64,000 bases of DNA from Verrucomicrobiota bacterium (lineage in GTDB: Bacteria; Verrucomicrobiota; Verrucomicrobiia; Limisphaerales; CAIMTB01): positions 2,377 through 66,376 of the forward strand of contig CAUJJW010000274.1 of assembly GCA_963205105.1 (NCBI GenBank), in the 5' to 3' direction. The first letter of the stretch is position 1. Each line of letters begins with the position of its first letter. Positions 748 through 51,391 of the stretch are shown here, piece after piece. Position numbers and translations under genes: made by a program. Under the pieces are notes generated by a model that ran no database searches, was not told where the DNA came from, and saw nothing but the letters and a program-made list of their open reading frames with translations.

Positions 748-1746
748 TCAGGCCCCGCCCGTCTCCTGGGCCAGGGCTCTGGCGGCGCGGCGCCGGACCG
801 CATACCGCTTCACCAGCTCGTCGGCAATCACGCCGATCAGAATCACCGCACCGATGATCGCGAACTCGATGTTGTTCCGGGTGGTGACCAGCGTGATCAT
901 GTTGCGCAGCACCTGCATCAGGGCGGTTCCGATGATCACCCCCAGGATGGTCGCTTCCCCGCCGCGCAGACTGCACCCACCCAGCACGGCGGCGGCAATG
1001 GCGTACAATTCGTAGAAATTCCCGAAATCGACCGGTTGCGCCGAGTTGACGTCGAGCACGAAGAGCAATCCGCCAAAGCCGGCCAGGGTGGAACTGATCA
1101 CATACGCGAGAATGGTCATCCGCTCGGTATTGATGCCGCTGTACCGGGCCGCCTCCTCGTTGCGACCCAACGCCAGCAGGTACCTGCCGTAAATCGTGCG
1201 GTTCAGGAAGATCGCCGCCGCCACCGCGACCACGAAGAGGAACACCCAGGGCGCCGGCAGCGCGAACCCGTCGATGAACGGCAGCTTGATCTGCCCGGTC
1301 GCCAATGTGCGCAGGCTTCGAAACTCCATGCCGAAGCCGACCGTTTGGTCGTTGGTGAACCCGCGCGCGATGCCGCGGTAGAGCAGCAACCCGCACAACG
1401 TGACCACGAACGGCTGAAGCTTGAGCTTCGTGATGAGCAACCCGTGACCCAACCCGATGCCCGCCGACACTCCCATGACCGCAATCACGGCCGCTGGTAC
1501 CGACCACCCGTGCTTGGTCAGAAGCCAGGGCAGACCGCACCCCACCAGACAGACCACCGATCCAATGGAAAGATCGATGCCGCCGGTCACGATGACGAAC
1601 GTCACCCCGACGCTGATGATGCCGAACAACGCGGTGCGGCGGACGAGGTTCTCCAGGTTGTAGCCGCTCAGGAAACTGTCGCTGGCCATCGCGGTGACCA
1701 TGCAGACGACCGCCAGGAGGATGGAGATGCCAAGAATCTTCTTCAT
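748..1746 (-). CDS. Sugar (ribose/xylose-type) ABC transporter permease
   Basis: Very hydrophobic, with GGIDLSIGS and YELYAIAAAVLGGCSLRGG motifs typical of RbsC-type permeases. ATG at 1746 lies just after the ATPase stop. Confidence 0.9.
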   Translation of the reverse strand: MKKILGISILLAVVCMVTAMASDSFLSGYNLENLVRRTALFGIISVGVTFVIVTGGIDLSIGSVVCLVGCGLPWLLTKHGWSVPAAVIAVMGVSAGIGLGHGLLITKLKLQPFVVTLCGLLLYRGIARGFTNDQTVGFGMEFRSLRTLATGQIKLPFIDGFALPAPWVFLFVVAVAAAIFLNRTIYGRYLLALGRNEEAARYSGINTERMTILAYVISSTLAGFGGLLFVLDVNSAQPVDFGNFYELYAIAAAVLGGCSLRGGEATILGVIIGTALMQVLRNMITLVTTRNNIEFAIIGAVILIGVIADELVKRYAVRRRAARALAQETGGA

Positions 1747-1750
1747 GGGT

Positions 1751-3253
1751 TTACGCCGCCAAACGTTCACTGCCGGTGGCGAGGTGCATCACCGCCTCCT
1801 CGCTCAAGGCGCCCCGGGCCAATTCACCGGCCAACCGTCCTTCATGCAGGACCAAGGCCCGGTCGGACATGCCGAGGATCTCTTCCATTTCACTGGAGAC
1901 AAACAGGATGGCCACTCCCTGGTCGGCCAGTTCCTCCATCAACCGGTAAATCTCCTGCTTGGCCCCGATATCCACACCCCGGGTCGGCTCATCCAGCAAC
2001 AAGACCTTGGGCTTCAGAGCCAGCCACTTTCCCAGGACCACCTTCTGCTGGTTGCCACCGGACAGGAACTGAACCACCTGCCGGTCATGCGGGGTCTTGA
2101 TGCGCAACGCCGCCACCATGTCCGCACTCAACCGGGCCATGCCGGTCGGACTGAGGAACCCAAAGCGCTGGTCCCGTCGCAGACGCGCCAGACACAGGTT
2201 CTCCCGCACCGCCATCTCCAGGATCACCCCCTGCTTCTTCCGGTCCTCGGGCACCAACGCCAATCCGGCCGCGATTGCCTCCTTCGGCGACCGGGGTGCC
2301 AGGGCACAACCGCCAATCCGCATCACGCCACCCACCGCTGGCAGCACGCCAAACAGCGCCTCCAGCAATTCGGTGCGCCCGGCCCCCACCAACCCGGCGA
2401 CTCCCACGATTTCCCCCGCGCGCACTTCGAAACTCAGCGCATGCCGCGGGTGGGCCCGGGTCTGCAACCGTTCGACCTTCAAAACCACCTCGCCCGGCTT
2501 CCGTGGCACGTGCGGGTAAAACTGAGAAAGATCCCGACCCACCATCAGCTTCACCATCCGGGAATGATCAATCTCGGTCTTCTCCAGGTTCCCCGCGTTC
2601 TCACCGTCGCGCAGCACCGTCACCCGATCCGCCAACGCCCTCACTTCACCCAATCGATGAGACACATAAACTAGGCTCACCCCCCGGGATCGCAGATCCC
2701 GGATCACCTTGAACAGATTTTCCGCCTCGTGACTGGAGAGGCTTGAGGTCGGCTCGTCCATGATCAGAACCCGGGCGTTCACCGACAACGCCTTGGCGAT
2801 CTCGACCAACTGCTGATGACCGATGGTCAGGGTGCTCACCAGGGTCGCCGGATCCACCACCAGTCCCACCGCCTCCAGAAACTGCCGCGCTTCCCGCCGC
2901 ATCCGCGCCGTGTCAATCAACCCGCCCTTGAGCGGTTCGCGCCCCAGGAAGATGTTGGCGGCCACGTCCAGGTTGTCCGCCAGGTTCAGTTCCTGGTGAA
3001 TCAGGGCGATGCCCGCCCGCAGGGAATCGTGGACATTCCGAAGTTCAACCGTAGTCCCATCCAGGGCGATCTCCCCGGAATCCGGGCGCTGCACCCCCGC
3101 GAGAATCTTCATCAGGGTGCTCTTGCCCGCCCCGTTCTCGCCGATCACCGCCAGGAGTTCACCCCGCCCCAGCGAGAGACTCACGCCCTTCAGGGCGCGG
3201 ACCCCGGGGAAGGACTTGATCAGCTTCCGAACCTCCAGCAGCGGCGCGGTCAT
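1751..3253 (-). CDS. Sugar ABC transporter ATP-binding protein (two ABC domains, RbsA/MglA type)
   Basis: Walker [18 protein letters not shown]-type Walker B (VLIMDEPT), second domain [15 protein letters not shown] and [10 protein letters not shown]. Start taken at MTAPLLEV (ATG 3253). Confidence 0.92.
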
Positions 3254-3270
3254 GTCGACGCACGCCCCCG

Positions 3271-4320
3271 TTAGTTCGCCGGCACAACCTTGGCCTTCAG
3301 ATCCGCCCAGAACTCGTCGACGTTGTCCTTGCGAATCTGGCGAGCGGGGATGTCCATGAACTTCGAGGGCGGGATCACTCCCATGTTGCCCCTGGCGAGT
3401 TCCGCCAGAATCTCCACCGACTTGTAGCCGTACATGTAGGGGTTCTGGACCACCGTTCCGTGGACCGCACCACTTTTGACGCCAGCCAGCGTCGCGTCGT
3501 CCTCGTCGAAAGCCACGCACTTCACCACTCCAAGCTTGTTGGCTTGCCCCAGAGCCTCCAGCAGCAGCGGCGGGTTGTACGCAAACATCCCCACCATGCA
3601 GCCGATGTCGGGGAACTTCGCCAGGGTGTCCTCCGCGTTGGCCTTGCCCTTGGCCCGGTCGAACTGGTCGGTCAGCGTGCCCACGATCTTGAATCCGTTC
3701 GCACTCACCACGTCCGAGGGAGGATCGAACCGGGTCGGGTCTTCGGTGCGCCCCAGGATCGCGTCGATCACCCCCTGGCGGCGCCGTTTGGCGTTGTCCT
3801 GTTCCAACCGACCAATGAACAGCATCACCGAACCGCCCTTCGGCATGGATTCACGCACCAATTCGCCGCACAGCCGCCCCGCCTTGTAGTTGTCCATGCC
3901 AATGTACAACAAGCGGTCGCTTTCAGGCGCGTCGGAGTCGTGCGTGATCAGTTTTGTCCGCTTCGCCGCCTCGTTCAGGATGTCCCGCTGGTTGGCCGGA
4001 TCGATCGGACTCACGGCGATGCCATCGATGCCGCGGGTCAGCAGATCCTCGATCATCCGCTTCTGGTCGCTGATGCCTTCCACCGGCATGAGGGTCGAGG
4101 CGTCGACATCGTACTTCTCGCCAGCCGCCTTCACCCCGGCGGCGGCGATGGTCCAGAACGAGGCCACGCCGTTGGTCACGAAGGCCACCCGCTTGCGCTT
4201 GCCGGCCGCGGGAGCAGCGGCTGAATCGGCGGGCCCATTGGACGGTTTGCAACCCGGCAACAGGGCGGCAGCGATGGGCAGGGGCAGGGAAGCCAGGAAT
4301 TCGCGCTTGGTGAGTTTCAT
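3271..4320 (-). CDS. Sugar ABC transporter substrate-binding lipoprotein (type I periplasmic binding fold)
   Basis: N-terminal TKREFL (Tat-like) plus lipobox LLPGC. It has RbsB-like segments ([27 protein letters not shown]) and sits in the ABC operon. Confidence 0.88.
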
Positions 4321-4388: not shown

Positions 4389-5162
4389 TCAATGAACAGT
4401 CATGCCGCCGTTCACATGAAGGTTCTGCGCGGTGACAAACGAGGAGGCGTTGCTCGCCAGAAACACAATCGCTCCGCTCAGGTCGTCCGGAATACCCCAG
4501 CGCCCTGCCGGAATCAGCGCCCGATAGCCTTCCTTCACGTCCGCGGGATCGTTCTCGTGCCGTTCCACCGGAATCCAACCCGGCGCAATCATGTTCACCG
4601 TGATGCCCCACGGGGCAACTTCGGTCGCCAATCCCCGGTTGAAACCATTCTGCGCTCCCTTGGCGGCGATGTAGGCCGTGAAGTTGGGCACCCCGCGCGC
4701 GACCACCTCCGAACCGATGTTGATGATCCGACCCCAACGCTGCGCCTTCATGTGCGGCAGGCAGGCACGGCTCAGCAGGTAGGGGCTCTTGACGAAGAAA
4801 TCCAGCATCTGCTGGTAGAAGGCCCAGTCGTACTCCTCGATAGGCTTCAGCGGCTGCGCCGGCGTCGCATTCAACACCAGGATGTCCACCGCACCGATCC
4901 CCTGCGTCACCTCCCCCACGATCCGGTCCACTTCCACCGGGTCGGTGACATCGCCCCGTACCAGCATCCCGTCACAACCGGCTGCGCGGAAGTCCGCGAG
5001 CGCCTTCTCAGCGCGTCCCACGTTGTTCTGGTAGTTCAGGGCCACTTTCGCCCCAGCCCGCCCCAGCGCCACCGCCATGCTGCGCCCCAAACCCGTGGTG
5101 CTGCCTGTCACCAAGGCCACCCGGCCCGCCAGGGAAAAGCTTTCAAGTGAGGCGTTCGGCAT
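4389..5162 (-). CDS. Short-chain dehydrogenase/reductase (SDR)
   Basis: TGSTTGLG Rossmann motif, YIAAK catalytic YxxxK and VNMIAPG. Start taken at MPNASLE. Confidence 0.9.
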   Translation of the reverse strand: MPNASLESFSLAGRVALVTGSTTGLGRSMAVALGRAGAKVALNYQNNVGRAEKALADFRAAGCDGMLVRGDVTDPVEVDRIVGEVTQGIGAVDILVLNATPAQPLKPIEEYDWAFYQQMLDFFVKSPYLLSRACLPHMKAQRWGRIINIGSEVVARGVPNFTAYIAAKGAQNGFNRGLATEVAPWGITVNMIAPGWIPVERHENDPADVKEGYRALIPAGRWGIPDDLSGAIVFLASNASSFVTAQNLHVNGGMTVH

Positions 5163-5265
5163 GGATCGGCAGTCGGTTCGTGTCGCGGTCAAGGGTGAAC
5201 ACCGCGGAACCTAGACAAGCCGATAGCGCACGACAATGCCGCAGCGCGAAAAGCTCCACCTTCCA

Positions 5266-5292
5266 GAAGACCTTGAAGACCAAGAAGAACTA
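5266..5292. repeat. Three tandem degenerate 9-mers (GAAGACCTT GAAGACCAA GAAGAACTA)
   Basis: Read directly from the sequence. The run abuts the left end of the MITE-like element. Confidence 0.6.
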
Positions 5293-5495
5293 AGCGGAAC
5301 GATTCAGATGAGATCCATGGAGTTCACGCAAAGACGCTGAGACGCCAAGAAATGGGACGAACAAGATGAGCCGGGAGCACTCCGACACCCACACCTTTTG
5401 GTTCGCGATTCCTTCTGGGCGCGAGCCGCTTTCTCGGCCGCTCCGCCTTTGAGTCTTCGCGTCTTGGCGTGAGATGCAAAGGAAGCGTTCCGCTA
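5291..5495. mobile_element. MITE-like / ERIC-like non-autonomous element, copy 1 (~205 bp)
   Basis: Imperfect terminal inverted repeats (TAAGCGGAACGATTCAG ... GCGTTCCGCTA) and inner inverted 8-mer arrays (CACGCAAAGACGC ... GCGTCTTGGCGTGAG). A 42-bp core matches 48781-48822 at 40/42 positions. Confidence 0.7.
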
Positions 5496-8400
5496 CGCCC
5501 CCGCCGGGGCCGGCATCGGGGGCGCCATGTGCGGCGCCTCCGTGGTGGCCTGGCGCCGACTCGTCAGCAGCACATACATCGCCGGAATCACGAACAGCGT
5601 CAGCGCCCCCCCGAACACCAGCCCACCAATCACCGCGATGCCCATGGATACCCGGCTCTCCGAGCCCGCCCCCAGCGCCAAAGCAATCGGCAGAATCCCA
5701 AGAATCGTCGCCAGGGTGGTCATCAGGATCGGACGCAACCGAGCCGTCGCCGCTTCCTGAACCGCCGCCAGGGCGCTGCCCACACCCGCTTCACGCCGTT
5801 GATTGGCGAATTCGACGATGAGAATGCCGTTCTTGGTCACCAAACCGATCAGCATGATTAACCCGATCTGCGAAAAGACATTCAGGGTCTGCCCAAACCA
5901 CGACAACGCCCACAGCGCCCCCGCCAGGGCCAGCGGCACGGTCAGCAGAATCACCAAGGGGTCCATGAAGCTCTCGAACTGCGCCGCCAGCACCAGGTAG
6001 ATCAACACCAGCGCCAGCAGAAAGACGTACCCCAGGGAGGATGAACTCTCGACGAAGTCCAGCGCCGCACCCGTCAGCGACGTGGTGAACCGATCGTCCA
6101 GGGTGGTCTTGGCCACTTCGCGCAACGCCGTAATCCCGTCTCCCATCGTCTTACCCCGCGCCAGTGTCCCCGAGATCGTCGCGGAACTGTAGCGGTTGTA
6201 CCGGTAGAGTTCCGGAGGCGAACTGCTCTCGGACATCGTCACCAGGTTGTCGAGCTGCACCATCTCACCCCCCGCCGCCGGCACCGCGATCCCGGTCAAA
6301 TCACCCGGCCTCGACCGGAATTGCCGGGTCAACTGACCGATCACGTCGTACTGCTTGTCGTGAAGAATGAAGTACCCGAACCGTTGCCCGCTCAGGGATG
6401 CCTGAAGGGTCTGGGCAATGTCCAACGCGGTCACGCCGAGCGTCTGTGCCTTGTCCCGATCCAGCGAAACGCGAACCTCCGGCTTGCTGAATTTCAGGTC
6501 GCTGTCCACGAAGCTGAACGCAGGGCTCTTCCTCGCCTCTTCCAGGAATTTGGGAAGAACTTCCTGCAGGGTGCTGAGGTCGGGCGCCTGAATCACGAAC
6601 TGCACACCGCTCTGACCCGAACGTCGTTCACCAATGCTCGCCTCCTGCGTCACATTGACCCGCGCACCGGTCAGTTCGCGCTGAAGACTCTGCAAGTCCG
6701 CAGCGATCTCCTGCTGGGTCCGGTCCCGCAGCTGTTTGTCGGGCAGAAACACACGCACAAAACCTGAGTTGATCGCCCCCTGCACCCCCTGCGCACCTCC
6801 CGATCCCGGCACCTGGGTCATCATCAGCCTTGCTTCCGGCACTCGGTCCGCCGCCGCCTTCGCCAGGTCATCGATGAAGTTCTGCATGTAATCGTAACTC
6901 ACCCCCTCGGCGGCCGTCGCCCTCAGCCACAATCGCGCCCGATCCTCCAGCGGTGACAGTTCTCGTGGCAGTTGACCCAGAAAGAACTGAATCGCGACAG
7001 CTGCCACCGCCAAAACCCCCACCGCCAGCCATCGCATCCGCAGAAAGTTCGCCAACCCCCTCGCATACCCGGATTCCATCCCGGCAAAGAACGGCTCCGT
7101 CTTCCGGAAGAGCCAGCCCTGCCCCGCATGGGCCTTCAGCATGCGAGAACTCAGCATCGGCGTCAGCGTCAGCGCCACCACCGCCGAGATCAGCACCGCC
7201 CCCGCAATGGTCACCCCGAATTCCCGGAACAACCGGCCCGACAACCCGCCCATGAACAACAACGGCAGAAACACCACCGCCAGCGTGATGGTCGTCGACA
7301 CCACCGCCGTGAAAATCTCCTTGGTGCCTTCGATGCCCGCCGTCATGGGGGCCATCCCGCCTTCCACCTTCTTGTAGATGTTCTCCAGCACGACGATCGC
7401 GTCATCCACCACCAGTCCGATCGCCAGCACGATCCCCAACAGGGTCAGTGTGTTGCTCGAGAACCCGGCCGCCGCCATGATCGCGAACGTCCCCACAATC
7501 GACACCGGAATCGCGATCACCGGAATCAACGTGGTCCGCCATTCACGCAGGAAGGCAAACACCACCAGCACCACCAGGCCGAAGGCGATGAAGATCGTTT
7601 CTGTCACCTCCAGGAGTGAGCGACGCACATAGGCCGTGTTGTCATAAGCCACTTCCAGGGAAATGTCCGCCGGCAGTTCCTGCCGGATTCGGTCCAGCCG
7701 CCGCATGATTTCGTCGACGATCTCAATCTGGTTCGCGCCCGGTTGCGGCCGGAAATACAGGCCCGCAATCGGACGTCCGTCCACCTTGAGAGCTCCACGT
7801 TCATTCTGCGGACCAAGCTCCGCGTAACCCACGTCCCGGAAGCGCACGATCCGATCGCCCTCCCGCTTCACAATCATCGCGTTGAAATCGGACGGCGTGT
7901 TCAGCCGCGACATCGTCTTCACCGGAAGTTCCACCGACTCACCCTCGATCCGGCCCGAAGGAAGCTCGATGTTCTCCCGCGCCAACGCCCGACGCACATC
8001 CATCGGCGACAGCCCATAGGCCGACAGTTTCTCCGGGTCCATCCACAGCCGCATCGCGTAGCGCTTTTCCGCCGGCTGATCCACCGACGCGATCCCTGGA
8101 ACGGTCTGGAGGCGTTCCCGCAACGAGTCGGCGAATGCCGACAATTCCAATTGGGGACGGCGCTCACTGCGCAAAGCGAGACCCAGAATCGGGCTCGAAT
8201 CCGCGAAGGCTTTGTTGAGCACGGGAGGATTGGAGTCCGGCGGAAGATTCCGGACCGCCCGGCTCAATTGGTCGCGGACATCACTGGCGGCGGTGTCCAG
8301 GTCGGTATCGAGGGTGAACTCGACGGTGATCTGGCTCACGCCCTCGCGGCTGGTGGAGGTGAGAGTGCGAATGCCGGCGACGGTGTTCACCGCCTCCTCA

Positions 8401-45691: not shown

Positions 45692-48691
45692 ATGACCTCC
45701 GCCGCATGCCTGCCGGGGGTGGTGTCTCCGGCCGCGGCCTGGATCCTGGGAGCAACCATGTTGGCCCAGACCGCACTGAAGGGCGAAGAACAACACGGCC
45801 TTCATCTGGTGCTGGACGCTGCCGTGCTGGTCCTGTGCGCCACGATTGCCTGGATGCTTTGGCAGCTGGGCCGCCGGGCTCGGCATCCGTTCTCCATGAC
45901 ACTGTCCGTGACCTTCGCGATGGCTTCCGTCCTGATGCTCTACCATCTCGTCGTCAACGCTCAGTGGCCGGACGGCCAACCCACGGGGGAGCAGACTCCG
46001 GGGCCGCAGGCATCCGGCACCTGGGCTTCCGCGATGCATGTTCTGCCGATCGGGCTGAGCGCTGCGGCCTGGTTCAACCGGACTCCCGCCCCACTCCCGC
46101 ACCCACGGCTACTGCTGTTCGGGCTGATGGCGCTGACGGCCGGTCTTCTGACGTTGTTCCGATGGTTGCCCACCTATTCCCCAGCCAATGTGTGGGGCAT
46201 CACACGGCCGGCTCTGGCCTTCGCACCCCTGCTGTGGGCCCTTTGCCTTGGCATGGCGTGGCGCCGGCGCACCGCCCACCCGCTCATGGGCGTGCTCGTC
46301 CTGATCTCCGCCCTCCACATCCCGGCGACCCTGGCCCTGCTCTTCTCCAGCGGACCCCATGATGCCCCGGCTGTTGAAAGCCACCTGCTGTCCGTGTCAG
46401 GCAGCGCCATCTTCCTCGTGCTGTTGATTTCGATGTCCACAGCCGCAGCCGGCGAAGGTCAGCTCGCCTGGATCACCCCCCATCGGCTCGGCCCGCCACC
46501 GGAAGCCTCGCCACCCGCCAACGTCGCAGAACGTCCCGTCGTGACGCCCCCAGTCGACCCGCAGCTGGCATCGACCCTTCGGGAGCTAAGTGAACTGAAG
46601 ACCGCCCTGGACGAGCACGCGATCGTGGCCATCACCGATCCAGCGGGGCGCATCACGTTCGTGAATGCCAGGTTCTGCGCCATCTCGAAGTACAGCGCCG
46701 AGGAACTGCTCGGGCAGGACCATCGCATCATCAATTCCGGACATCATTCCAAGGAGTTCTTCCGGGACCTCTGGACAACCATCCGCCGTGGCCGGGTCTG
46801 GCACGGCGAAGTCAAGAACCGGGCCAAGGACGGCACCCTGTACTGGGTCGACACCACCATCGTGCCGTTCCTGAACGACGAGGGACACCCCCGCCAGTTC
46901 GTGGCGATCCGGGCGGATATCACGGAACGCAAATGGGCCGAGGAAAAGGCCCAGGCCCAATTGGCACGCCTGGATCTGCTCCACCACATCACCCGCGCCA
47001 TCGGGGAACGCCAGGACCTTCAAAGCATCCTGCAAGTCGTCGTCCAAAGCGTGGAAACCAACCTGCCCGTCGACTTCAGCTGCATGTGCCTATACGACGA
47101 AGCCTTTAATAACCTGAAGGTGGCGAGGATCGGCGTCCGCAGCGAATCACTTGCCGAGCAGCTGGGACTCACCTCCAACGCCAGGCTGCCCATCGACGCC
47201 AACGGCCTCTCGCGGAGCGTCGGCGGGGTGCTCGTCCACGAACCAGACGTGGCGGAGGTGCCCGCGGCGTTCCCCTCCCGCCTCGCCCGGGCCGGCATGC
47301 GCTCCCTCGTGATCGCACCGATGCTGGTGGAGAGCCGGGTGTTCGGCGTCCTGATCGTCGCCCGCCGTCAGCCCAACGCGTTCGTCAGCGCAGAATGCGA
47401 ATTCCTCAGGCAACTGTGCGAACACGTGGCTCTTGCCTCGCATCAGTCCCTCCTGCACAGCGCGCTTCAGCAGGCCTACGAGGACCTCCGGCAAACCCAG
47501 CAGGCCGTCGTCCAGCAGGAACGCCTGCGCGCCCTCGGTCAAATGGCCAGCGGCATCGCCCATGACATCAACAACGCCATCACCCCGATCTCCTTGTATG
47601 CGGAGTTGCTGCTGGAAGCGGAACCCGACCTGAGTCGACGCGGGCGGGAACAGCTTCAAACCATCTGCCACGCGATCAACGACGTGGCCCAAACCGTCGC
47701 CCGGATGCGGGAGTTCTACCGGCAGCGCGAGCAGCAATTGCAGCTGGCATCGGTGGACTTGAACCGTCTGGTCCAGCAGGTGATCGATCTCTCCAGGGCC
47801 CGGTGGCACGACATGCCCTTGATGCGGGGCGTCGTGATCCACATGTCCGCCGAACTTCTTCCCCATCTTCCACCCATCCAGGGAGTCGAGAGCGAAATCC
47901 GCGAAGCCCTCATCAACCTCGTCTTCAACGCGGTCGACGCGATGCCCGAGGGAGGCGTGCTCACCCTGCGTACTGCGTTCGACGAGGAACCGGCTCAGTC
48001 CATCGATGGAAAACCTGCCCGTCACGTCTCCATTGAAGTGACCGATTCCGGGATCGGCATGGACGAGGAAACACGCCGTCACTGCCTGGAACCGTTCTTC
48101 ACCACCAAAGGCGAGCGAGGCACCGGCCTGGGACTCGCCATGGTCTACGGAGTCGCCAAACGTCACGGGGCCGACCTTGAAATCGCCAGTGCGGAGGGCG
48201 AAGGGACGACCATCCGCATCACGTTCGACATCTCCGGCCCTGGCTCCGGCCAGACAACGGTCGAGGGTTACCCTGTCGCCACCCCGGGACGCATGCGCAT
48301 CCTCGTGATCGATGACGATCCGCTCCTGATCAAGTCCCTGCGGGACACCCTCGAAAGCGACGGCCACAGCGTGCAGACCCGCAACGGAGGTCAGGCCGGC
48401 ATCGACGCCTTCCGCGAATCCTTGCGTCGCGACGAAGCGTACGCCGTCGTCATCACCGACCTGGGAATGCCCCACGTCGATGGCCGAAAGGTCGCCGCCG
48501 AAATCAAAGCCATGTCGGCGAACACCCCGGTGATCCTCCTCACCGGTTGGGGCCAGCGGCTGGTCGCGGAAGGTGATATCCCTGCCCACGTCGACCGTGT
48601 CCTGAACAAGCCGCCGAAGCTGATCGAACTGCGCAGCGCCCTCAGCAGTGTGACGCGCCCCACGACAGACACCGATCCAAAGCCGGCTTAG
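45692..48691 (+). CDS. Hybrid sensor histidine kinase (multi-TM MASE3-like sensor, PAS, GAF, HisKA, HATPase, REC)
   Basis: About 7 hydrophobic segments, PAS (AIVAITDPAGRITFVN...W.GE.KNRAKDG..YWV), GAF, H-box IAHDINN, NAVDAMP, FFTTKGERGTGLGL and a receiver domain (IDDD, VITDLGMP, K). Start may be slightly downstream. Confidence 0.93.
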   Translation: MTSAACLPGVVSPAAAWILGATMLAQTALKGEEQHGLHLVLDAAVLVLCATIAWMLWQLGRRARHPFSMTLSVTFAMASVLMLYHLVVNAQWPDGQPTGEQTPGPQASGTWASAMHVLPIGLSAAAWFNRTPAPLPHPRLLLFGLMALTAGLLTLFRWLPTYSPANVWGITRPALAFAPLLWALCLGMAWRRRTAHPLMGVLVLISALHIPATLALLFSSGPHDAPAVESHLLSVSGSAIFLVLLISMSTAAAGEGQLAWITPHRLGPPPEASPPANVAERPVVTPPVDPQLASTLRELSELKTALDEHAIVAITDPAGRITFVNARFCAISKYSAEELLGQDHRIINSGHHSKEFFRDLWTTIRRGRVWHGEVKNRAKDGTLYWVDTTIVPFLNDEGHPRQFVAIRADITERKWAEEKAQAQLARLDLLHHITRAIGERQDLQSILQVVVQSVETNLPVDFSCMCLYDEAFNNLKVARIGVRSESLAEQLGLTSNARLPIDANGLSRSVGGVLVHEPDVAEVPAAFPSRLARAGMRSLVIAPMLVESRVFGVLIVARRQPNAFVSAECEFLRQLCEHVALASHQSLLHSALQQAYEDLRQTQQAVVQQERLRALGQMASGIAHDINNAITPISLYAELLLEAEPDLSRRGREQLQTICHAINDVAQTVARMREFYRQREQQLQLASVDLNRLVQQVIDLSRARWHDMPLMRGVVIHMSAELLPHLPPIQGVESEIREALINLVFNAVDAMPEGGVLTLRTAFDEEPAQSIDGKPARHVSIEVTDSGIGMDEETRRHCLEPFFTTKGERGTGLGLAMVYGVAKRHGADLEIASAEGEGTTIRITFDISGPGSGQTTVEGYPVATPGRMRILVIDDDPLLIKSLRDTLESDGHSVQTRNGGQAGIDAFRESLRRDEAYAVVITDLGMPHVDGRKVAAEIKAMSANTPVILLTGWGQRLVAEGDIPAHVDRVLNKPPKLIELRSALSSVTRPTTDTDPKPA

Positions 48692-48890
48692 CCAACGATT
48701 CAGTTGCAATTGATGGAGTTCACGCCAAGACGCAAACGCCAAGGAAAGCCATAAAATCGAGGGATCGCGAACCTTCCAATCACCCACACCTTTTGGTTCG
48801 CAAATCCTTCTGGGCGCGAGCCTCTTTCGCAGACGGTCCCTCTTTGCGTCTCTGCGTCTTGGCGTGAGCTCCAACTGAATCGCTCCGCTA
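48689..48890. mobile_element. MITE-like / ERIC-like element, copy 2 (~202 bp)
   Basis: TAGCCAACGATTCAGTTG ... CAACTGAATCGCTCCGCTA ends, with inner CACGCCAAGACGC/GCGTCTTGGCGTGAG inverted repeats. Shares its core with 5291-5495. It fills the whole gap between two convergent stop codons. Confidence 0.72.
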
Positions 48891-49661
48891 CGCGTGCATG
48901 ACCTGGCCACCGTCGATGTTGATCGTCTGACCGGTGATGTTCCCGGCCCGGTCCGAGGCGAGAAACACCGCCATGGACGCGATTTCTTCCGGCTGCTGCC
49001 ATCGGCCCAGGGGCGAAACCTTGCGAATCTTGGCCTCCGCCCACGCGGCGTATTCCTGCCGCTCCGCCTCGGGAAGCCCCTTCTGACTGGCAGCCCAAAC
49101 CGATTGGTTCAGGTCCGTGCGTACCATCCCGGGAGAGAGCGCGTTCGCGCGCACACCATGCGGCGCAAGGTCTTTCGCCGCACACTGCATGAAGTTGATC
49201 AACCCAGCTTTGGCCGCGCTGTAGGGCGGATCCGTCTGCGACCCGGTCTGGCCCGCCACCGACACGATGAACAACAGCGATCCGCGACCGCGCGAGGCCA
49301 GCCGCGGGGCGAAGGCATGCGCCACGTTCACGGCGCCAATCAAATTGACCTCCAGCACCCGCGGCCAGTCGGCGGGATCCAGGTTCCAAAAAGGAAAGCC
49401 GAACTTTCCAGAGCCGGCTCCCACCGAGTACACGACGTGATTCACCGGACCGGAGTCCTCAGCGAACGCCTTCACCGCGGCGAGCGATGTCACGTCGCCG
49501 GTGGTCATCGAAACCCCCGAATGAAGAGGGCGCGGGCTCGGATCCCGATCAAAGCAGCGCACCCGGCAGCCTTCCGCCGAGAATGCTTCCGCGATCGCTC
49601 GCCCAATCCCTTTCGCCGCGCCGAAGACCGCAACGGCCTGACCTTCCAGCTGCAATTGCAT
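48888..49661 (-). CDS. Short-chain dehydrogenase/reductase (SDR)
   Basis: FGAAKGIG, YSAAK and NALSPG. Start taken at MQLQLEG. Confidence 0.9.
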   Translation of the reverse strand: MQLQLEGQAVAVFGAAKGIGRAIAEAFSAEGCRVRCFDRDPSPRPLHSGVSMTTGDVTSLAAVKAFAEDSGPVNHVVYSVGAGSGKFGFPFWNLDPADWPRVLEVNLIGAVNVAHAFAPRLASRGRGSLLFIVSVAGQTGSQTDPPYSAAKAGLINFMQCAAKDLAPHGVRANALSPGMVRTDLNQSVWAASQKGLPEAERQEYAAWAEAKIRKVSPLGRWQQPEEIASMAVFLASDRAGNITGQTINIDGGQVMHA

Positions 49662-49710
49662 CAACCACCATACCAACCCGGCCAAAGCCCAAAGAAAAGG
49701 CTGCTGACGG

Positions 49711-51345
49711 TCACTGCTGCACCAATTGAATCCGATTCCCGCAGGTGTCCTCGAACACGGCCAGCACCGTCGGCCCCATGCGAGTGGGTTTCATGCTGAA
49801 GACCACCCCCTTCTTCACCAGCGCATCATGGGCCTTCTGCACGTCGCCCACCGACAGCGACGTCAGCGGAATCCCCTGGCGGAACAGCGCCGTCTGATAA
49901 GCCTTGGAAGCCGGGTTTTCATTGGGCTCCAGCACGAGCTGCATTCCTTCGGGATCGTCTGGCGCAACCAGGGTCAGCCATCGGAAGGCTCCCACCGGGA
50001 AGTCGAACTTTTTCTGCAGCCCGAGCACTTCGGTGTAGAACTTCAGGGCTTTCTCCTGGTTGTCGACGAGGATGCTGTTGAGGTCGACGGAGAGCCCGTT
50101 CGGGTCGGTGGCTCCGGACCGCGCCGGCCGCTGATGGAGTTGAATCAGGTTGCCACAGGTGTCCTGAAAGACCGCCAGGGTGGTGTCCCCGGCTTCGGTC
50201 GGTGCCTGGGTGAACACAACTCCAAGGGCTTTCAATCGTTCATAATCCCGCCGCACATCGGTCGTCCCCAGCGAGTTGAGCGGAATCCCCTGTTGAAAGA
50301 TGGCTTGCTGGAAGGCTCTGGCGTCGGGATGGGCGTTCGGCTCGAGCAACAGCTCCAGGTCGCTCCGATCCTTCGCCGCCACGGTGAGCCAGCGAAACGG
50401 ACCCGCAGGCATGTCGCGCTTGCGCTCGAACCCCAGCACTTCGGTGTAGAACTTCAAGGCCTTCTCCTGGTCATCAACCAGAACACTGCTCATTCGGATG
50501 TTCATCGAAAAGGGTCTCCCGGGCGGGGCAACTGGCGTGTCGGACAGGCCCGATGACTTCGGAGGTCTCAGGGCGTAATCACCCACGGCAAGGGCCACCA
50601 GAGCCAGGATCGCCACAATCACCGACTTGGCGGGCAACGGCAGACTGGCGGCCAGCCCGGCTCCGACCTCCGAAACCGCGGCCGAAGCCGCGGCCGGCAG
50701 GGTTCCTTGAGCCACCGAACCTGCCAGCGTCGCCGACCATCCGACAGGCGCCGCAGTGACCGGCATTTTGGCCAGGCCAGCGGCCAGGAGTGCCACGCTG
50801 ATGGTCACCCCCTGGCGCAGGAGCATGGATCGCATCCGTTCCAGGGCGCGTTGGACCCGCTTTTTGGCGGCCTCCTCGGTGGTCCCCAAGGCGACTGCCA
50901 CGTCACGCAGGCTTTTCTGCTGCAGGAACCGCAGCACGATCGCATCGCGGTCCGATTCGCCCAGTTCCGCCAGTGCCCCATCCATGCGCGGTAGCACCTC
51001 ATCGCTCAAGGCGCCTTCGTTGTCGTCCGTGTGGTTTGCCATGGCAGCCTCCTCCTCCCAGTGGCGTCGACGTGCCTCGGCCCGGCGAAGATTCCGCGCG
51101 GCGAAATGAACGGCGCGATGCAGCCAACCCGCGATCAGCGTGGCCCGGGGCAGTTGACCTGCCTTGGAGGCCAGAGTGAGGAATGCGGATTGAACGGCCT
51201 CCTGCGCGGCATGCGGATCGCGGAGTTGCCGGAGCGCCGCCGAGTAAACCACGTCGATGTGACGTTCAACGAGTTCCCGGAAGGCCTCTTCAGAATGCCG
51301 GTTGGCGTAGGCCTCCAGCAGCTCGATGTCGCTCAGTCCTTTCAC
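49711..51345 (-). CDS. ECF sigma-70 factor fused via a hydrophobic segment to two tandem VOC/glyoxalase domains
   Basis: Region 2 (AFRELVERH...AQEAVQSAFL...GWL), region 4 (DRDAIVLRFLQQKSLRDVAVALGTTEEAAKKRVQRALERMR) and a TM-like VIVAILALVALAVG. Two copies of LVD.QEKALKFYTEVLG...DTCGN.IQL follow. Confidence 0.88.
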   Translation of the reverse strand: MKGLSDIELLEAYANRHSEEAFRELVERHIDVVYSAALRQLRDPHAAQEAVQSAFLTLASKAGQLPRATLIAGWLHRAVHFAARNLRRAEARRRHWEEEAAMANHTDDNEGALSDEVLPRMDGALAELGESDRDAIVLRFLQQKSLRDVAVALGTTEEAAKKRVQRALERMRSMLLRQGVTISVALLAAGLAKMPVTAAPVGWSATLAGSVAQGTLPAAASAAVSEVGAGLAASLPLPAKSVIVAILALVALAVGDYALRPPKSSGLSDTPVAPPGRPFSMNIRMSSVLVDDQEKALKFYTEVLGFERKRDMPAGPFRWLTVAAKDRSDLELLLEPNAHPDARAFQQAIFQQGIPLNSLGTTDVRRDYERLKALGVVFTQAPTEAGDTTLAVFQDTCGNLIQLHQRPARSGATDPNGLSVDLNSILVDNQEKALKFYTEVLGLQKKFDFPVGAFRWLTLVAPDDPEGMQLVLEPNENPASKAYQTALFRQGIPLTSLSVGDVQKAHDALVKKGVVFSMKPTRMGPTVLAVFEDTCGNRIQLVQQ

Positions 51346-51391
51346 GTTCTACCGGTTAATAGCCGGTCGATCGGGAAAGGGACACCGGAGT

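Follow-up and report, generated by a model that had tools for sequence, protein, structure and literature searches.

Among sigma factors, extracytoplasmic function (ECF) proteins that carry fused extensions are viewed as the counterpart of one-component systems. To our knowledge, the input has been established for very few of these extended proteins, and no membrane-tethered representative from the Planctomycetes–Verrucomicrobia–Chlamydiae (PVC) superphylum has been tested. Here, we focus on such a gene in a 64,000-nucleotide stretch (hereafter, the window) of contig CAUJJW010000274.1 from a soil-type Verrucomicrobiota bacterium. The gene, located at 49711..51345 on the minus strand and named ECF-VOC below, encodes a complete sigma2/sigma4 core, a clade-specific segment, a spacer, one transmembrane (TM) helix, a tether and two domains of the vicinal oxygen chelate (VOC) superfamily. 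Among described systems, the sigma/anti-sigma hybrid IutY of Pseudomonas putida (ECF243) likewise combines an ECF domain, a single span and a periplasmic part in one polypeptide; it is processed by Prc, then by RseP, and its truncation leads to constitutive activity (PMC5411451, PMC8999054).

Other groups of ECF sigma factors are comparable in part. SCO4117 of Streptomyces coelicolor (ECF52) and members of ECF48 and ECF53 also associate an ECF domain with one or more membrane spans and an extracytoplasmic carbohydrate-binding domain, and proteolytic activation has been proposed for them (PMC8999054). ECF57, formerly ECF01-Gob, is found in the PVC superphylum, in several copies per genome and with long, variable extensions (PMC7826278, PMC8999054); according to review, its members harbour WD40-like repeats and two conserved Cys linking sigma2 and sigma4 (PMC8999054). 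ECF41, ECF42 and ECF56 are one-protein sigma regulators, in which a fused fold of the small-molecule-binding type is the presumed input (PMC3426412, PMC7826278).

ECF-VOC differs from each of these. In IutY, a TonB-dependent receptor delivers the signal and the anti-sigma/periplasmic domain is of the FecR type, whereas ECF-VOC has no FecR domain and no adjacent receptor gene, shows a different segment next to sigma4 and possesses a VOC pair as ectodomain; its proteolysis is proposed by analogy. The actinobacterial proteins of ECF52, ECF48 and ECF53 have an anti-sigma segment of the zinc-finger (ZAS-like) type, which Pfam and NCBIfam searches did not find in ECF-VOC. The likeness to ECF57 extends to a β-propeller extension borne by one of the paralogues in the same genome; nevertheless, ECF-VOC is set apart by the description of ECF57, having no WD40 match and no Cys in residues 1–280, the only two Cys of the protein being Cys397 and Cys535 in the DTCGN motifs of the VOC domains. 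Finally, ECF41, ECF42 and ECF56 are soluble proteins devoid of a span, the SnoaL-like or tetratricopeptide repeat (TPR) extension of which touches the sigma core, whereas in ECF-VOC a TM helix and disordered stretches lie in between. Membrane-tethered ECF sigma factors with a C-terminal extension are a known category; the VOC extension is without a description that we could find. In the full texts searched, neither a VOC/glyoxalase extension on an ECF sigma factor nor the PVC cassette family presented below was described.

A single uninterrupted open reading frame (ORF) spans the gene in the ORF listing of the window, starting with GTG, ending with a stop codon at 49711–49713 and encoding 544 residues. 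All its parts, the coordinates of which were verified by re-translation, lie on the minus strand. Sigma-70 region 2 (residues 25–93, 51067..51273) is matched by PF04542 (Sigma70_r2) with 28.7 bits, and its helices are modelled by AlphaFold2 (AF2) with a predicted local distance difference test (pLDDT) score of about 90. Sigma-70 region 4 (residues 122–177, 50815..50982), delimited from the paralogue alignment and from PF08281 and PF04545 (Sigma70_r4_2/r4, 122–172), contains the recognition helix EEAAKKRVQRALERMR, which the same alignment shows to be nearly invariant. The three Pfam models score above their cut-offs, as does TIGR02937 (sigma70-ECF) of NCBIfam (66.3 vs. 42.9), and neither database gave a sigma3 or sigma1 match in the protein, in line with the profile of ECF (group 4) sigma factors. 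The intact ECF core reported in an initial annotation of this DNA is thus confirmed. The PVC-specific ECF models of NCBIfam stay below their cut-offs (TIGR02989, 44 vs. 124.6; TIGR02984, 40 vs. 183.8).

Beyond the core, a conserved juxta-sigma4 segment (residues 178–215, 50701..50814), with the motif RGVxxSxxxLxxxLxxxxVxAAPxGL, is followed by an Ala/Ser/Gly low-complexity spacer (residues 216–238, 50632..50700), predicted to be disordered and poorly conserved in orthologues, and then by the strongly hydrophobic stretch SVIVAILALVALAVGDYAL. Kyte–Doolittle hydropathy (mean of 2.32 for the 19-residue window starting at residue 241) and the AF2 helix both indicate a single TM helix here (residues 239–259, 50569..50631), so that the Ala-rich linker and the hydrophobic segment noticed earlier are both recovered. 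A Pro/Ser-rich tether (residues 260–280, 50506..50568), predicted to be disordered and a candidate region for site-1 cleavage, leads to VOC domain A (residues 281–406, 50128..50505; Cys397) and VOC domain B (residues 419–544, 49714..50091; Cys535). The two domains, already described as complete and mutually similar, share 56% identity, and PF00903 (Glyoxalase) matches twice, at 288–403 and about 425–523, with 134.5 bits over both stretches against a cut-off of 20.6. In the AF2 model (mean pLDDT 84.7), the sigma core and both VOC domains are confident, helices occupy residues 184–192 and 203–214 of the juxta-sigma4 segment (pLDDT of about 77–84), and residues 214–237 and 260–275 are disordered (pLDDT <50) on either side of the 21-residue helix 239–259. 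The hydropathy of this helix averages 2.36 over 62 orthologues.

The fusion is not restricted to this assembly. A search of 5.8 billion proteins yielded at least 60 clusters with 44% to 91% identity, full-length coverage and the same Pfam architecture, deriving from JGI, ENA, Logan and NCBI sources; named matches belong to Verrucomicrobiota, e.g., Pedosphaera parvula. From the clusters, 62 orthologues could be aligned over their entire length, with positions that never vary in sigma2, sigma4 and both VOC domains, and five orthologue loci (L011, L012, L013, L015 and L097) translate without a stop through the fusion. That an ECF gene and VOC genes were joined only by an error of assembly or sequencing, or by a recent frameshift, could be suspected from the fragmentation of the assembly (412 contigs) and from Met281, which resembles a start codon; the sharing of the full-length architecture by more than 60 independent clusters, together with the stop-free loci, refutes it for all practical purposes, and the fusion of two genes by a sequencing error, against which the initial annotation had cautioned, is ruled out. 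The gene thus exists and is conserved, yet its distribution over genome representatives is patchy: of 13 genomes of the same genus, one has it (G411, 72% identical and full-length), and it was not found in another 46 genomes of the order or in a phylum-wide sample of 400 genomes. As a separate observation, ECF-VOC diverges much faster than its neighbours. The L011 protein (6001–7641) is only 56% identical to that of the window, compared with 77% for the adjacent short-chain dehydrogenase/reductase (SDR), 77% for the adjacent hydrolase and 84% for a large upstream protein.

The own genome (8.2 Mb) contains 15 ORFs of 384 to 1134 residues that match residues 1 to about 255 only. They share the ECF core, the RGV...AAP segment and, some 45 to 60 residues later, a hydrophobic helix, beyond which they are fully divergent. 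According to Pfam, their C-termini consist of CarboxypepD_reg/Big_1 (Ig) domains, HEAT repeats, a DUF5122 β-propeller, an AhpC/TSA thioredoxin-like domain, or coiled-coil or unknown regions. ECF-VOC was initially taken for a singular fusion, a view that does not hold, since 15 paralogues, ECF-VOC itself included, are assembled on a common promoter/sigma/linker/TM cassette. Relatives within the order have up to 23 cassette-type genes per genome. Both the 15 paralogues and the 62 orthologues have kept the juxta-sigma4 segment, Pro200 being invariant in the latter; no model in Pfam or NCBIfam covers it, and a hidden Markov model (HMM) built from it matches only the 15 ECF-fused paralogues in the genome and no stand-alone protein. 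No anti-sigma gene adjoins ECF-VOC in the ORF listing or by Pfam.

Some further ECF proteins were encountered alongside this family. Four ECF-like proteins of the same genome belong to a different clade (C277:7492-10272(+), C203:968-2602(-), C355:9943-12801(+) and C405:44518-46287(-)); they have polytopic C-termini with about four to seven hydrophobic segments, are devoid of the RGV...AAP linker and recall the multi-TM extensions of ECF263. On the contig of a relative (P0019), an 835-residue ECF protein fused to an α/β-hydrolase is encoded at locus coordinates 1089–3596, two genes upstream of the ECF-VOC gene, and represents a further enzyme-like ectodomain on the same kind of cassette.

The cassette also includes a promoter-like motif. 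Gibbs sampling of the 150 nt upstream of the 15 paralogues retrieved TGTC[CG]GATTT-N~10-CGGCGG-N-ATT with a score of 209, compared with 162 to 170 for shuffled sets, and it mostly begins 28 to 47 nt before the aligned start codon. When each paralogue was left out in turn and scored against the genome background, the region-corrected p-value was below 0.05 in 14 of the 15; for ECF-VOC, it was 7e-4 at position -39. This occurrence, TGTCCCTTTCCCGATCGACCGGCTATT, common to the paralogue clade, lies at 51358..51384 (minus strand), begins 39 nt 5' of the GTG and is ranked first on both strands of the 64-kb window by a matrix built without it. As it ends about 12 nt before the GTG, a very short leader would result. 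The motif recurs at about -34 to -42 at the orthologues L011, L012, L013/L014, L015 and L097, the upstream genes of which differ, and, in other genomes of the order, it precedes each of the 10 paralogues examined. Condensed, the motif is TGTCnnnTTT-N10-CGGC-ATT, located some 38 nt 5' of the start codon. An exact enumeration of two-block k-mers revealed nothing beyond shuffled controls.

Among the orthologues, the motif takes the specific form TGTCCC-N9 (N8 in L097)-CGACCGG[CG]TATT; TGTCCC-N9-CGACCGGCTATT is the form from which the sigma core is predicted to transcribe. Paralogues hardly differ in the sigma4 recognition helix but do differ in the sigma2 region reading the -10 element, which may parallel the shared -35-like and variable -10-like halves of the motif. 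Because one half and its reading helix are shared while the other half differs, the paralogous sensors could be partly cross-wired. With regard to target genes, the orthologue-specific pattern is no more frequent in the genome than expected by chance once the site of ECF-VOC itself is set aside, and no second such site is present in the orthologue loci. The general matrix holds 15.7 bits, which is too few for a regulon search, and its top matches outside the family precede spurious ORFs. Besides the motif, an inverted repeat, ACCGG-N7-CCGGT, was noticed at 51351–51367 (minus strand); it overlaps the -10-like half, stops 5 nt before the GTG, is partly retained in G411 (ACCGG...TCGGT) and weakly in L011, and could be an operator or a 5' hairpin.

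Turning to the VOC module, among the matches listed each domain is 50% to 64% identical to free proteins of about 127 residues, found from Bacillus to Chloroflexota and in archaea. One of these, 55% identical, is a protein of the Bacillus subtilis group named methylglyoxalase. Its gene adjoins genes matching FAD-oxidoreductase, GIY-YIG and FrlB models, which we take to be yurR, yurQ and frlB; on account of this neighbourhood and of the source name, we equate it with YurT (GlxB). By their sequences, both VOC domains belong to this YurT/GlxB-like family, the DDQ, FYT, RW, LEP and DTCGN motifs of which are invariant and present in both. In Bacillus, yurT null mutants are sensitive to methylglyoxal (PMC5790435). 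The nearest structure is 4g6x (46% identity, E = 2e-33, Foldseek TM-score 0.98). Like the domains of ECF-VOC, with which they share length and the DTCGN, RW, FYT and LEP motifs at about 55% and 46% identity per domain, YurT and 4g6x are small; in contrast, they are free proteins of about 127 residues, devoid of a signal peptide and presumably cytoplasmic homodimers, whereas ECF-VOC carries a tandem tethered to a sigma factor. Of the structures with a named function, those closest to the domains are the enediyne-binding proteins TnmS2, UcmS2 and TnmS1 (5umq, 5umw and 6cky among their entries; 33% to 38% identity, TM-score of about 0.8). They adopt the same fold and act by binding, the TnmS proteins sequestering enediynes, and not by metal catalysis (PMC9854587), but they are soluble self-resistance proteins of biosynthetic clusters with no link to transcription.

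Membership in the VOC superfamily is supported by PF00903, by the fitting AF2 secondary structure and by Foldseek matches to 4g6x and to maize glyoxalase I (GloI). The glyoxalase I model TIGR00068, on the other hand, reaches only 52.3 against a cut-off of 120, which leaves the domains outside glyoxalase I proper. For the metal ligands, the domains were aligned to the sequence of E. coli glyoxalase I (GloA), the ligand numbering of which was checked and is self-consistent. In this alignment, Glu56 alone has an equivalent; Met/Leu stands at the position of His5 and Gln at that of Glu122, no His corresponds to His74, and the loss is common to both domains and to the whole YurT-like family. With three of the four ligands gone, the pair would be a binding module, or a metal-independent module using the conserved Cys. 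As a model, it superposes on the two-domain, monomeric maize glyoxalase I (TM-score 0.69 over about 295 columns), so that the tandem most simply replaces a homodimer of single-domain VOC proteins. Every domain A has another domain A as its nearest neighbour, and a tree of A, B and free domains is unresolved at depth. No free copy of a YurT-type VOC is present in the own genome. In a HMMER search of 1.84 billion representatives, double-VOC proteins of the YurT-like type are only ECF-linked or N-truncated, and the remaining matches are single domains of about 130 residues. Apparent ECF-less architectures with a double or a single VOC were rejected, as the gene calls are truncated N- or C-terminally, beginning in the linker or stopping at contig ends.

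The initial annotation had seen in the Met that opens domain A (MNIRMSS) a hint of gene capture. Met281 indeed aligns exactly with the initiator Met of the free homologues of about 127 residues (4g6x, Bacillus YurT); an internal start, however, is not conserved, as Met281 is retained in only 26 of the 62 orthologues. A Shine–Dalgarno-like GGGAGA lies 9 nt upstream of its ATG (50506–50523, minus strand) and is probably a coincidence, being absent from the orthologues L097, L015 and L013.

Several relatives show other contexts for YurT-type domains. Some single-domain proteins have Sec, Tat or lipoprotein signals or a TM anchor, from which it follows that part of the family is exported and that an extracytoplasmic VOC is feasible. 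They include a Vicinamibacterales protein with a twin-arginine signal (MRRRDFVTGGAGALSLTL...; L028, about 4980–5438, plus strand) and P0162, P0226, P0246, P0141 and P0143, with Sec or lipoprotein signals or a TM anchor. In P0191, a YurT-type VOC is fused to an ArsR-type winged helix (a helix-turn-helix domain), which shows that this VOC type serves regulators elsewhere. In P0177 and P0118, it is fused to SRPBCC/AHSA1 domains, P0118 having a Tat-like RRELLKY motif between the two parts.

Taken together, we consider it somewhat probable (roughly 55%) that ECF-VOC is a membrane-tethered ECF sigma factor whose outward VOC pseudo-dimer senses a small electrophile or antibiotic-like ligand and whose sigma part is released by proteolysis. 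Sigma domain, TM helix and a further domain are found in one polypeptide; a single span would place the VOC pair outside the cytoplasm, the sigma part being cytoplasmic and the VOC pair probably facing the periplasm, an orientation consistent with the paralogous C-terminal domains, which are of types usually found in exported proteins. The two VOC domains would form within one chain the pseudo-dimer that the free homologues presumably form as homodimers, and thereby give a monomeric membrane protein complete ligand pockets. The tethered sigma factor would be kept inactive at the membrane, possibly aided by the juxta-sigma4 segment, until binding of the small electrophile or antibiotic-like compound permits cleavage of the tether, then intramembrane cleavage by a site-2 protease, as in IutY. 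The own genome encodes at least five Peptidase_M50 homologues, a family also present in 14 out of 14 control genomes. The freed sigma factor would transcribe its own promoter, in a positive feedback, and probably also the downstream SDR gene in its own genome. The early suggestion of a sensor for such a ligand hence remains plausible, given the kinship with YurT/GlxB, the proximity to TnmS1 and TnmS2 and the missing metal ligands; the predicted topology is that of a membrane-tethered design, not of a soluble one-component regulator.

A number of observations weigh against this proposal. The topology is deduced from hydropathy, AF2 secondary structure and the domain types of the paralogues; the positive-inside bias is weak (1.9 vs. 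1.5 K+R), and the hydropathy of the post-sigma4 stretch is borderline across orthologues (mean 1.52, maximum 2.03). This stretch and the TM helix could accordingly form a two-span hairpin, leaving the VOC pair in the cytoplasm, where it would sense, e.g., methylglyoxal and control the sigma factor by contact, on the model of the SnoaL-like and TPR extensions of ECF41 and ECF42. Contact-acting C-terminal extensions are the best-studied type (PMC7826278, PMC8999054), most free YurT-like homologues have no signal peptide and are thus probably cytoplasmic, and segment 174–192 reaches a Kyte–Doolittle value of 1.62–1.65 here and up to 2.03 in orthologues. We nonetheless hold the hairpin to be unlikely, since AF2 models the first stretch as a helix of nine residues (184–192) followed by the conserved Pro195 and AAP200, too short to span the membrane, the paralogous counterpart of this segment includes Glu, His, Ser and Thr and lacks hydrophobic character, the paralogues carry C-terminal domains of exported types, and the VOC pair is set off from the sigma core by two disordered stretches. 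In the same region (residues 178–262), Pfam and NCBIfam searches recognised no anti-sigma domain (FecR, RskA or zf-HC2), and the conserved juxta-sigma4 segment could dock a common partner; both points would suit a sigma factor that stays at the membrane without proteolysis, as a decoy or partner-switch titrating RNA polymerase or a regulator, or in a ToxR-like, membrane-bound mode of transcription. This appears very unlikely, because orthologues show strong conservation of residues in sigma2 and sigma4 and the position-fixed motif accompanying the family members fits an active, autoregulating sigma factor; in addition, a flexible reach of about 60 residues may be too short for the holoenzyme at chromosomal promoters generally.

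An enzyme would likewise be compatible with how strongly the YurT family is conserved (about 55% identity between phyla, with invariant DTCGN, RW, FYT and LEP motifs). The VOC pair might then be a periplasmic detoxifying enzyme or sequestering protein merely anchored by the sigma/TM cassette, i.e., an effector and not a sensor, with the sigma factor controlled otherwise, for instance by general envelope stress or by turnover of the whole protein. The methylglyoxal sensitivity of yurT mutants (PMC5790435), the occurrence of exported single-domain relatives apart from any sigma factor, the enzyme-like AhpC/TSA ectodomain of a paralogue and the ECF–α/β-hydrolase fusion on the contig of a relative all agree with it. 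Against it, three of the four canonical metal ligands are missing. Furthermore, the nearest functionally named structures are binding proteins, the genome is without a free copy of this VOC type, and 15 unrelated ectodomains fused to sigma factors are hard to explain unless they provide an input, so that an effector role seems rather unlikely to us. Lastly, the promoter motif could be read by another sigma factor and not by the family members themselves, and a genome scan with its orthologue-specific form gave no second convincing site, so that no regulon is defined.

Returning to the tethered sensor, we can tentatively propose, as a possibility that falls short of an even chance, that the order runs a plug-in repertoire of membrane-tethered sigma sensors, in which a constant cassette is combined with captured domains, here a YurT-type VOC turned into a periplasmic receptor for electrophiles or antibiotics. 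The captured gene may originally have been cytoplasmic and then been duplicated, and ligand binding, possibly via the single conserved Cys of each domain, may directly license the release of sigma. As ECF-VOC pairs the cassette with a small, well-folded domain of a crystallisable type, and as relatives of this domain either bind antibiotics or confer protection from methylglyoxal, the candidate ligands can be narrowed to a short list, and the predicted 27-nt promoter is usable as a reporter. It could therefore be a tractable entry point into the signalling of this large family of tethered ECF sigma factors, and could help to show what the widespread YurT/GlxB-type VOC proteins recognise.

With regard to the neighbouring genes, ECF-VOC lies, as first reported, between a serine hydrolase and an SDR gene in the same orientation. 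The hydrolase gene (β-lactamase family, PF00144; 51392..52606, minus strand) is 46 nt upstream and syntenic only in L011 and L097; the SDR gene (48888..49685, minus strand) is 25 nt downstream, possibly co-transcribed and conserved only in L011. The promoter motif sits in the 46-nt gap 3' of the hydrolase gene, which is hence not downstream of it, so that only the SDR gene could share the transcript; the region 5' of the hydrolase gene itself showed no conserved promoter. The hydrolase–ECF–SDR order was found only in L011, where the neighbours are 77% to 84% identical, and the neighbours are unrelated in five other orthologue loci. Consequently, the detoxification regulon inferred earlier from this arrangement finds little support. 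In G411, the hydrolase gene is kept, and the gene directly after ECF-VOC reads by eye as FabI, not as an SDR. Convergent with the SDR gene, the window encodes at 45692–48691 (plus strand) a 999-residue hybrid histidine kinase, absent from the G411 locus; read by eye, its sequence starts with an extended hydrophobic region, continues with parts resembling PAS, GAF and kinase domains and ends with one resembling a receiver.

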